Positions 24,471 through 25,662 are shown, counted from the first letter of the stretch. The stretch is 25,662 bases of DNA from an uncultured Bacteroidaceae bacterium (GCA_964589155.1 CAZPTO010000001.1:1-25662); one strand, 5' to 3'. The notes: generated by a model from the letters alone, not told the origin. Program-made: numbers and translations.

Positions 24471-25139
24471 TTATTTATTGCGCGGTTGTGAGCGGTCTTT
24501 ACGCGCTTGTGTGTGATAGTACTTGCAGACATGGGTCAGTCCACAGGAGGCGCACTTTGGTTTCCTGGCAAGACAGACATACCTTCCATGGAGTATGAGC
24601 CAGTGATGTGCTTTGTGAACCAGTTCTTCAGGAATGTATTTGAGCAGTTGTAATTCAGTATCAAGGGGAGTTTTCGATCCGGTGGTTAATCCTATCCTGG
24701 CAGCTACCCTGAAAACATGGGTATCCACTGCCATTGCCGGTTGCTGATATGCCACCGAAAGAATCACATTGGCTGTTTTTCTTCCGACCCCCGGGAGTTT
24801 CCGGAGGTCTTCCAGGTTGTCGGGAACGGATCCGGAAAATTCACTGACAAGCGTCCGCGCCATTCCCACAAGATGCTTTGCCTTGTTGTTGGGATAGGAA
24901 CAGCTTTTGATATATTCATATACCTCTTCAGGTTCGTGGTTCGCCAGGATATCTGCACTAGGAAACTTTTTGAAGAAGGTATTTGTGATGATGTTCACAC
25001 GTTTATCTGTGCATTGGGCAGAAAGGATCACTGCTACAATCAATTCATATGTGTCCCGGTATTCCAGTTCTGTCTCAGCAATGGGCATATGTGTTTCGAA
25101 ATAGCCGATCACCTCCTCATATAATTGTGCTTTTCTCAT
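24471..25139 (-). CDS. nth: Endonuclease III (222 aa)
   Basis: LIVAVILSAQCTDKRVN, HhH motif LPGVGRKTANV, AVDTHVFRV, HHWLILHGR, and [4Fe-4S] motif CLARKPKCASCGLTHVC (C-x6-C-x2-C-x5-C). Confidence 0.97.
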   Translation of the reverse strand: MRKAQLYEEVIGYFETHMPIAETELEYRDTYELIVAVILSAQCTDKRVNIITNTFFKKFPSADILANHEPEEVYEYIKSCSYPNNKAKHLVGMARTLVSEFSGSVPDNLEDLRKLPGVGRKTANVILSVAYQQPAMAVDTHVFRVAARIGLTTGSKTPLDTELQLLKYIPEELVHKAHHWLILHGRYVCLARKPKCASCGLTHVCKYYHTQARKDRSQPRNK

Positions 25140-25265
25140 TTCTTCAGCCGTCCTTCCCGTAAATTAGAAAACAGTGTGTTCAATTGAACTTTAATATATA
25201 TCTATAACAAAGATGTCTAATAAATTTAAGAAATGAATAAAAAAACACTGTCATTGCTTATAATC

Positions 25266-25297
25266 TTTGTATTTATAAATATTTATAACTAGGTTTG
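25266..25297 (+). promoter_or_regulatory. Consensus Bacteroidetes promoter driving the leader/attenuator
   Basis: TTTG (25266-25269), 20-nt spacer, TAGGTTTG (25290-25297): an exact match to TTTG-N19-21-TAnnTTTG. Confidence 0.75.
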
Positions 25298-25309
25298 CAG
25301 CAGAATACA

Positions 25310-25360
25310 ATGAAGACAACTTTCGGTGCATATTATTTCTATTTTTTTGATCTCAGGTAA
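25310..25360 (+). CDS. Putative Phe/Tyr leader peptide MKTTFGAYYFYFFDLR (16 aa)
   Basis: ATG at 25310 in an A-rich context with A at -3. Codons 8-13 are TAT TAT TTC TAT TTT TTT; stop TAA at 25358-25360. Confidence 0.65.
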   Translation: MKTTFGAYYFYFFDLR

Positions 25361-25385
25361 TGTGGTCGGGATAGATTTATGGATG

Positions 25386-25416
25386 TACCCGGCGCATGCG
25401 TCGGGTATTTTTGTTT
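25386..25416 (+). terminator. Attenuator terminator hairpin
   Basis: TACCCGGCG (25386-25394) pairs with CGTCGGGTA (25399-25407), with one G-U pair and a CATG loop, followed by TTTTTGTTT. Confidence 0.75.
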
Positions 25417-25622
25417 ACGGACTTTTTTGCCGGAATTATTGTCATTCATAAAGATGTATAATAATTTTGATGCTAATTTGAACAGGCATGAAACCCTCAT
25501 CATTGGGCATGGTAATCTCAGCGGAGCAATGACAAAAGTGCGTGTATATATTGCGCGAAGTGCAAGGAGAAGTGATGAAGATTACACATAGCATAATAAT
25601 TTTTAAAGGTATTGACTCCGTC

Positions 25623-25661
25623 GAGCTCCACTGCGTTCCGGTTCGTGAGCTCACTGCGTTC
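25623..25661. repeat. Short imperfect direct repeat GAGCTC(C)ACTGCGTTC x2, REP-like, cut by the window edge
   Basis: GAGCTCCACTGCGTTC (25623-25638) and GAGCTCACTGCGTTC (25647-25661); each copy begins with the palindrome GAGCTC. Confidence 0.5.
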
Positions 25662-25662
25662 G

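Follow-up and report, generated by a model that had tools for sequence, protein, structure and literature searches.

A candidate leader-peptide attenuator with phenylalanine and tyrosine codons upstream of pheA in an uncultured Bacteroidaceae bacterium

Positions 25,266 to 25,416 of the window, a 25,662-nucleotide (nt) stretch of DNA from an uncultured Bacteroidaceae bacterium (GCA_964589155.1 CAZPTO010000001.1:1-25662), hold what is very probably a ribosome-mediated leader-peptide transcription attenuator controlling an operon for aromatic amino acids in which pheA is the first gene. The most likely role of this element, as judged from sequence, is that of a strongly conserved switch that would turn on the phenylalanine (Phe) and tyrosine (Tyr) biosynthesis operon when those amino acids are scarce. 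A sequence-only reading of the same DNA had proposed a Phe/Tyr attenuator worked by the ribosome; its interpretation is now supported by the pheA/tyrA operon downstream, by conservation in 78 genomes, and by the co-variation of three RNA segments. The element combines a promoter-proximal open reading frame (ORF) containing codons for the amino acids that the operon makes, an intrinsic terminator located before the first structural gene, an antiterminator that uses one strand of the terminator and co-varies with it between lineages, and a stop codon placed such that a terminating ribosome could block the 5' strand of the antiterminator. The parts are as follows.

25266..25269, + strand: -33 box TTTG; read directly, aligned and kept in the close relatives L006-L013
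25290..25297, + strand: -7 box TAGGTTTG, of the Bacteroidetes TAnnTTTG type; read directly
25310..25360, + strand: leader ORF MKTTFGAYYFYFFDLR, 16 codons plus TAA (25358-25360); read directly
25331..25348, + strand: candidate regulatory codons Tyr-Tyr-Phe-Tyr-Phe-Phe (TAT TAT TTC TAT TTT TTT), the proposed ribosome stalling site; read directly
25338..25352, + strand: segment 1, TCTATTTTTTTGATC, able to pair with segment 2 and its 3' flank; from minimum-free-energy folds
25360..25370, + strand: segment 2, ATGTGGTCGGG, the 5' strand of the antiterminator, with the core GTCGGG at 25365-25370; from the fold and from co-variation
25385..25397, + strand: segment 3, made up of the terminator 5' arm GTACCCGGCG and the CAT of the loop, common to terminator and antiterminator; from the hairpin scan and folds
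25399..25408, + strand: segment 4, the terminator 3' arm CGTCGGGTAT; from the hairpin scan, the fold, and the RNAalifold consensus hairpin of 41 relatives
25409..25416, + strand: T-tract of the intrinsic terminator, TTTTGTTT; read directly and from the hairpin scan

The 16-codon ORF with six consecutive Tyr/Phe codons, for which the sequence-only reading had given no explicit coordinates of the ORF itself, was found by direct reading. Its last Phe codon ends at 25348, i.e., upstream of the stop at 25358-25360 and of the segment 2 core at 25365-25370. This leader is the only mini-ORF of the window above the print threshold of five Phe or Tyr residues in seven, and no other convincing leader-peptide candidate was found in the window. 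It is missing from the gene calls and has no Rfam entry. To our knowledge, no Shine-Dalgarno sequence is to be expected in the Bacteroidetes, so there is no ribosome-binding site to point to.

The terminator stem (25385-25394 with 25399-25408) has 10 pairs, six of them G-C, and is closed by the loop CATG and followed by the tail TTTTTGTTT. A hairpin scan of the + strand returned this one site, GTACCCGGCG-catg-CGTCGGGTAT at 25385-25408, where shuffles of the region yield 0.5 such sites. The hexamer GTCGGG of segment 2 recurs in the 3' arm (25400-25405), and CCCGGC, able to pair with it, lies in the 5' arm (25388-25393); these elements were all found where they had been predicted, as was the U-tract. 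Folded alone, the terminator (25383-25410) has a free energy of -15.8 kcal/mol, while the antiterminator, folded from 25360-25398 with segment 4 left out, reaches -14.3 kcal/mol. The latter fold includes an ATGTG:CGCAT extension, which contains the ATGT:GCAT extension that had been proposed for the antiterminator. The hairpin in which the Phe/Tyr codons pair with segment 2 (the 1:2 hairpin, 25329-25380) has a free energy of -9.9 kcal/mol, and the pairing TCTATTTT:GGGATAGA is present in the computed minimum-free-energy folds.

The window ends at 25662, before the regulated gene. The gene on the 5' side, encoding endonuclease III (nth, 24471-25139), lies on the - strand; the attenuator unit is divergent from it and is thus not its terminator. 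A look-up through the endonuclease III protein gave short contigs only; one of them, identical to the window (L001), extends 161 nt past it and ends in GTG AAG AAA ATA GCC ATC CAG GGG GGA, the beginning of pheA, which corresponds to window-equivalent position 25775. A metagenome scan with a 26-mer from this start yielded the one contig with a full pheA (L004), whose ORF of 278 residues matches the Pfam prephenate dehydratase family PDT with E = 3.5e-55. PheA homologues number 7,496 at E <= 1e-20; the best 120 of these have 69-97% identity, and those with a named source are labelled Bacteroidales or Bacteroidota. In L006, which has 90% PheA identity and the same endonuclease III and MORN-repeat neighbours as the window, pheA is followed by a DAHP synthase-chorismate mutase fusion, 3-dehydroquinate synthase (aroB), type I dehydroquinase (aroD), a 205-nt spacer, chorismate synthase (aroC), and prephenate dehydrogenase (tyrA). 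The locus with 97% PheA identity (L005) has ORFs of equal sizes in the same order, without the aroD-aroC spacer. The expectation that the next gene would encode a shared step of the aromatic pathway was thus borne out: it encodes prephenate dehydratase and, in the nearest relatives, stands in an operon with DAHP synthase/chorismate mutase and tyrA. Such an operon holds the first, middle, and both terminal-branch steps and therefore makes both Phe and Tyr, which fits a leader with both codon types.

Conservation was assessed in the best 80 pheA loci of a genome scan, all from Bacteroidales/Bacteroidota metagenome-assembled genomes and with 65-97% PheA identity. Counts refer to the 78 loci with at least 250 nt upstream of pheA, the two others having less than 120 nt. 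Both strands were scanned for ATG mini-ORFs of 6-45 codons in which at least five of seven residues are Phe or Tyr. The sequence-only reading had suggested a search for such ORFs upstream of orthologues; one was found on the same strand as pheA in all 78 loci, ending 49-345 nt 5' of the gene (49-191 nt for the unit nearest to pheA). Examples are MRTSFGTYYFYFFDLR (L006), MAFRSSVYYFYFFTCR (L030), MSKTYTYSFFFFYFFFFTR (L067), and MNAGLFAYFYFFFFWVHTGPRSL (L043). Outside the pheA upstream region, the same scan of 1.47 megabases (Mb; both strands, 80 loci) returned 12 mini-ORFs with exactly five of seven and none with six or more, which answers the worry that T-rich DNA would produce Phe and Tyr codons by chance. 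At least two Phe and at least two Tyr codons are present in 87 of the 88 leader units. The peptide is conserved in the aromatic run only; the remainder varies, with peptide lengths of about 11 to 34 residues. When 41 sequences of the window family are aligned, the invariant positions of the aromatic run include T25, T28, T31, and T34, which are the first positions of codons 9-12, so that invariance in the run has a three-nucleotide period; T35 is also invariant.

The second body of comparative evidence concerns the RNA structures. By scan or by eye, a G+C-rich hairpin with a T-run lies 3' of every unit; seven units were flagged as lacking a terminator by the simple scan, in which A-T pairs had absorbed the T-tail, and their hairpins were seen by eye. 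Pairing between the region after the Phe/Tyr run and the terminator 5' arm has a mean energy of -12.8 kcal/mol compared with -6.4 kcal/mol for shuffles, with p <= 0.05 in 75 of 88 units. An exact copy, at least 6 nt long, of the unit's own 3' arm occurs in the region after the run in 62.5% of units, compared with 9% when arms of other lineages are used. Segment 2, the 5' arm, and the 3' arm co-vary across lineages, as the following comparison illustrates.

Window family: segment 2 GTCGGG, 5' arm CCCGGC, 3' arm GTCGGG
L075: segment 2 GGCGGG, 5' arm CCCGCC, 3' arm GGCGGG
L056: segment 2 ACGGGA, 5' arm TCCCGT, 3' arm ACGGGA
L073: segment 2 TCCGGGA, 5' arm TCCCGGA, 3' arm TCCGGGA
L042, L043, L051 (first unit): segment 2 GGGGC, 5' arm GTCCC, 3' arm GGGGC
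L063 (first unit): segment 2 GGGAC, 5' arm GTCCC, 3' arm GGGAC

Within the window family (41 sequences), the six core pairs between segments 2 and 3 are paired in 99.2% of cells; RNAalifold on the same sequences returns the terminator only. A column-wise count across lineages would not be trustworthy, given how much spacer lengths and pairing registers vary among them. When segment 2 is located as a 3'-arm copy of at least 5 nt, it starts 1-6 nt 3' of the stop codon in 54 of 70 units and lies inside the ORF, after the Phe/Tyr run, in 15 of 70. Given the general size of a ribosome footprint, a ribosome that has moved beyond the aromatic codons would cover either position.

These features suggest the following mechanism. 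Transcription would start a few bases 3' of the TAGGTTTG box, and translation of the 16-codon leader would begin close to the RNA's 5' end. With ample charged tRNA-Phe and tRNA-Tyr, the ribosome would reach the TAA at 25358-25360 and cover segment 2, whose first base is also the last of the stop codon and whose GTCGGG core lies 4 nt after that codon. With segment 2 (25360-25370) covered, segment 3 would pair with segment 4, the hairpin and T-tract would form, and transcription would end at about 25410-25416. If either tRNA is short, the ribosome would stall on the run YYFYFF (25331-25348), masking segment 1 and leaving segment 2 uncovered; segments 2 and 3 would then pair, no terminator would form, and RNA polymerase would read into pheA and the downstream aromatic genes. 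When the leader is not translated at all, the 1:2 hairpin of the window's clade would hold segment 2 and so favour termination. Translation of the leader, ribosome stalling, and the dependence of read-through on Phe and Tyr are the steps that we infer from this arrangement.

Motifs of the TAnnTTTG type are established as promoters of the Bacteroidetes primary sigma factor. The promoter that had been described, TTTG and a -7 box 20 nt apart, was confirmed by direct reading, and it is the sole full match to TTTG-N17-23-TAnnTTTG when the + strand of the window and of its extension is searched. Among relatives, a TAnnTTT[G/A] box ending at most 30 nt 5' of the first leader ATG is present in 63 of 76 loci, compared with 3.3% of random 38-nt windows. 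The sequence context thus suggests that the TAGGTTTG box serves as the leader promoter. A scan for sigma-70 promoters gave no site above expectation, as expected for Bacteroidetes.

Two further observations were made near this promoter. A second promoter 3' of the terminator was considered and rejected: TAATTTTG at 25462-25469 fits a -7 box and has no properly spaced TTTG upstream. A similar box, TACTTTTG, occurs at the same place in L006 and none in L007, and the TAATTTTG box is probably a chance occurrence in AT-rich DNA. Separately, a JGI contig (L002:1-172, - strand) encodes a 100% identical endonuclease III protein and carries intergenic DNA that tracks the window up to "...AAATATTTATA" and then diverges wholly (from about 25288 of the window onward), i.e., at a breakpoint between the -33 and -7 boxes. 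Its diverged part is AT-rich and has no match among the other sequences compared; it could reflect a strain-level insertion, a rearrangement, or an assembly chimera.

The 1:2 pairing requires separate consideration. In the window, this hairpin is better than shuffles (z = -2.75), and the same holds for L007, L008, and L010. As a general feature of the family it was rejected: the median z of the 68 units examined is -0.42, and in no more than 54% does segment 2 pair mostly with upstream sequence. The proposal that segment 2 can alternatively pair with the Tyr/Phe codons is therefore supported for the window and its close clade and does not extend generally to the family, and 1:2 pairing is best regarded as a feature of the clade. 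We treat two competing hairpins plus occlusion by the ribosome as the common core of the family.

It should be noted that several observations weigh against the attenuator interpretation or temper it. The inconstancy of the 1:2 hairpin is one of them. The fold of the whole leader only modestly beats shuffles (z = -1.84), so that the single sequence proves little and the weight of the evidence comes from the relatives. Within the window family the stems are near-invariant, with one compensated pair (L075) and a score that 12 of 500 shuffles attain; for this reason the within-family covariation test is uninformative, and between-lineage tests were used. The co-variation thus rests on between-lineage custom scripts in which segment 2 is located by its match to the arm, with the shuffle and foreign-arm controls run through the same procedure. 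The distance from the -7 box to the ATG is 12 nt, so the 5' untranslated region (UTR) of the leader would be very short, roughly 5-8 nt; 5' UTRs under 10 nt are uncommon among Bacteroides mRNAs, at 3.7% (PMC7366714). Finally, about 415 nt separate the leader stop from pheA in the window genome, and they include a foreign spacer; a promoter in this spacer could weaken the control of pheA, and none was recognised.

25480..25662, + strand: the portion inside the window of a spacer about 290 nt long, which runs to about 25774 in L001 (49-343, - strand) and L004

Compared with L006-L008, the window genome has about 296 nt (25480-25775) in place of 8 nt that include the ancestral pheA ATG. The spacer is absent before pheA in those three relatives; its homologue, at 82-84% identity, lies between aroD and aroC in L006 (8590-8795). 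At its beginning is a conserved mini-ORF, MKPSSLGMVISAEQ at 25488-25532 (MKPSSLDIAISEE in L006); further on are two tandem repeats, G+C-rich and each about 22 nt long (25623-25645 and 25647-25667), and it ends with the GTG that now serves as the pheA start. The spacer may be an intergenic cassette that has moved, a small mobile element, or what remains of a gene. No terminator, Bacteroidetes-type promoter, Rfam match, or coding potential was recognised in the spacer, and the DNA from the attenuator to pheA showed no further terminator; transcripts that read through should therefore still extend into pheA. The attenuator itself is intact, being 83-87% identical to L006 and L007 over the aligned attenuator region, and the related spacer kept before pheA in L005, at 97% PheA identity, indicates that the arrangement is stably inherited.

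These data bear directly on one alternative, in which the attenuator works in relatives and is partly or wholly uncoupled from pheA in the window genome by a promoter or processing site within the spacer (25480-25774). The spacer is indeed missing at this position in L006-L008, its GTG has replaced the ancestral ATG, and its homologue between aroD and aroC of L006 may be an internal start region; yet neither a TTTG-N-TAnnTTTG promoter nor a terminator was recognised within it, and the fully intact attenuator and the stably inherited arrangement, shared with L005, also count against this view. We consider such uncoupling unlikely. The distance of about 415 nt to pheA in the window genome might be held in favour of a free-standing small gene, encoding either a hydrophobic micro-protein or a small RNA of about 105 nt and exerting no cis control of pheA. 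A promoter and a terminator that looks efficient both belong to the unit itself, and attenuator RNAs and leader peptides that act in trans are known from Sinorhizobium trpL (PMC7298713, PMC7968998). Against this, the unit is always directly 5' of pheA and on the same strand in 78 genomes, the peptide outside the Phe/Tyr run is unconserved and varies from about 11 to 34 residues, and a conserved, co-varying antiterminator would have no role in such a gene. A role in trans could add to attenuation and would not replace it, and a gene of this kind seems to us extremely improbable.

A real attenuator could also be read by a different sensor, namely a protein or small ligand acting on the U-rich or structured leader RNA, in which case the Phe/Tyr frame would be incidental. 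T-rich RNA tracts are common protein-binding sites, translation of the leader is predicted from sequence, the 5' UTR would be unusually short, and in a phylum where no Shine-Dalgarno sequence is expected there is no ribosome-binding site to show. A frame of no consequence is, however, hard to reconcile with 78 of 78 loci that keep the ATG, the open frame, and a stop placing segment 2 within reach of a terminating ribosome, or with the three-nucleotide period of invariance in codons 9-12. The identity of the codons fits the products of the operon, ORFs with at least six of seven Phe or Tyr residues are lacking elsewhere in 1.47 Mb, and no Rfam riboswitch or protein-binding leader was matched. 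Sensing of this kind is, in our opinion, very improbable, and attenuation by a translating ribosome remains the preferred explanation.

Among known systems, the closest in logic is E. coli pheL-pheA (Rfam Phe_leader), along with pheM of pheST. As in the window, a short leader ORF carrying a series of regulatory codons precedes an intrinsic terminator, and a mutually exclusive antiterminator uses the terminator 5' arm; in pheL-pheA the downstream gene likewise encodes prephenate dehydratase. The two differ in that the codon run is mixed Tyr and Phe here and Phe alone in E. coli, that the operon of the window's nearest relatives also includes tyrA and common-pathway genes, whereas E. coli pheA stands alone, and that the window element has a Bacteroidetes-type promoter, no Shine-Dalgarno sequence, a very short 5' UTR, and a 1:2 hairpin that is not constant. 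Nor does it share sequence or structure homology with pheL: a cmscan search of 24900-25662, run at E <= 10 with the full set of 4227 Rfam families, gave no Phe_leader or Bacteroid-trp hit, and neither did L001 or L006 at E <= 0.1. The Rfam matches overall were chance-level hits to small nucleolar and small RNAs. The element is thus outside the sequence families of E. coli pheL, pheM, and trpL, with which it shares its logic.

Attenuation before pheA in this phylum has been anticipated. A listing of 2005, taken from the Merino database, gives a putative attenuator upstream of the B. thetaiotaomicron operon pheA > hisHb > aroA-aroQ > tyrA (PMC1173090, Table 7). This element shares with ours the phylum, the first gene, a similar Phe-plus-Tyr operon, and a predicted terminator and antiterminator; the entry is a database listing that describes no leader peptide or Phe/Tyr codons, and the likeness is one of description only (PMC1173090). 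The gene contents differ, with hisHb (an aminotransferase) in B. thetaiotaomicron and aroB, aroD, and aroC in the nearest relatives of the window. Clues to leader-peptide attenuation before amino-acid operons were reported for Flavobacterium psychrophilum in 2021, and a conserved structured 5' element without an Rfam match precedes pheA in that species and other Flavobacteriaceae (PMC9723704). The latter resembles the window element in phylum, downstream gene, and lack of an Rfam match; it belongs to a different class (Flavobacteriia), the main text of the paper gives no codon or pairing details, and the element too is likened by description only.

The Bacteroid-trp motif (Rfam RF01692) is a cis-regulatory motif of Bacteroidetes (PMC2864571). 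As in the window, it is a leader before an aromatic amino-acid operon in this phylum; the operon (trp) and the regulatory codons differ, and its Rfam model does not match the window, whose downstream gene is pheA. The Bacteroid-trp motif presumably acts through a leader peptide. Candidate attenuators in Bacteroidetes/Chlorobi are reportedly mentioned in the abstract of Vitreschak et al. from 2004 (FEMS Microbiol Lett 234:357). In other bacterial groups, upstream ORFs containing Phe and Tyr codons accompany shikimate-pathway genes (PMC6429828, Fig. 6b); these resemble the window element, by description only, as candidate regulatory ORFs before aromatic-pathway genes. Small ORFs "reminiscent of leader peptides" have also been noted in long 5' UTRs of B. 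thetaiotaomicron (PMC7366714).

The sequence-only reading had left it open whether such an element was already described in Bacteroidetes. A pheA attenuator in the phylum has been predicted or listed (PMC1173090, PMC9723704), so novelty does not extend to its existence; no description of the Phe/Tyr leader, its antiterminator, or its distribution in Bacteroidales was found in the literature searched, which covered few subscription journals. The element is therefore a new, uncatalogued case of a classical regulator whose presence in the phylum was already predicted in outline. Its interest is moderate: it is useful for annotation and as an experimental handle, and will not surprise a specialist. 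Aromatic amino-acid synthesis in Bacteroidales, a group with little-studied RNA regulation, gains a concrete regulatory element, and a 16-codon ORF and a "premature" terminator that annotation pipelines skip are accounted for. The roughly 90 units from 78 genomes, which include naturally compensated variants, units in tandem, and a class whose ORF contains the antiterminator strand, show which bases to mutate.

A broader reading, which we hold tentatively and at slightly less than an even chance, is that these units represent an uncatalogued family of dual Phe-plus-Tyr attenuators across the order Bacteroidales. Its core would consist of only two competing hairpins, with the terminating ribosome rather than a 1:2 hairpin blocking the antiterminator; units would often be tandem, and the RNA near-leaderless and without a Shine-Dalgarno sequence. 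Leader-peptide attenuation needs ribosomes that follow closely behind RNA polymerase. From such general knowledge, the constant presence of the attenuator speaks indirectly for a coupling of transcription and translation in a phylum whose translation initiation does not use Shine-Dalgarno pairing. Should the family prove to be as widespread as this, its ubiquity would imply tight coupling in Bacteroidota, in contrast to Bacillus, where coupling is absent.

The relatives show several variations in the arrangement. Two complete leader-plus-terminator units, 100-350 nt upstream, precede pheA in fourteen of them (L015, L028, L042, L043, L051, L052, L054, L059, L063, L066, L069, L074, L082, and L084); an example is MKRNFEYNYFYFN followed by MNAGLFAYFYFFFFWVHTGPRSL. 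In all these pairs, segment 2 and the terminator arms match within each unit. In a sub-class with longer leaders (e.g., ...FFFWVNTGPGSL), the antiterminator strand ACCGGG/CCGGG lies within the ORF, 10-26 nt before the stop; the unit adjoining pheA is of this kind in L014, L017, L037, L042, L043, L051, L063, L068, and L076. Tryptophan codons occur in 17 of the 88 leader peptides and, in the printed examples, adjoin the Phe/Tyr run (FWYFFYFYFF, FFFFW); the window leader has none. Because the operon includes common-pathway genes, these codons might allow the third aromatic amino acid to be sensed as well.

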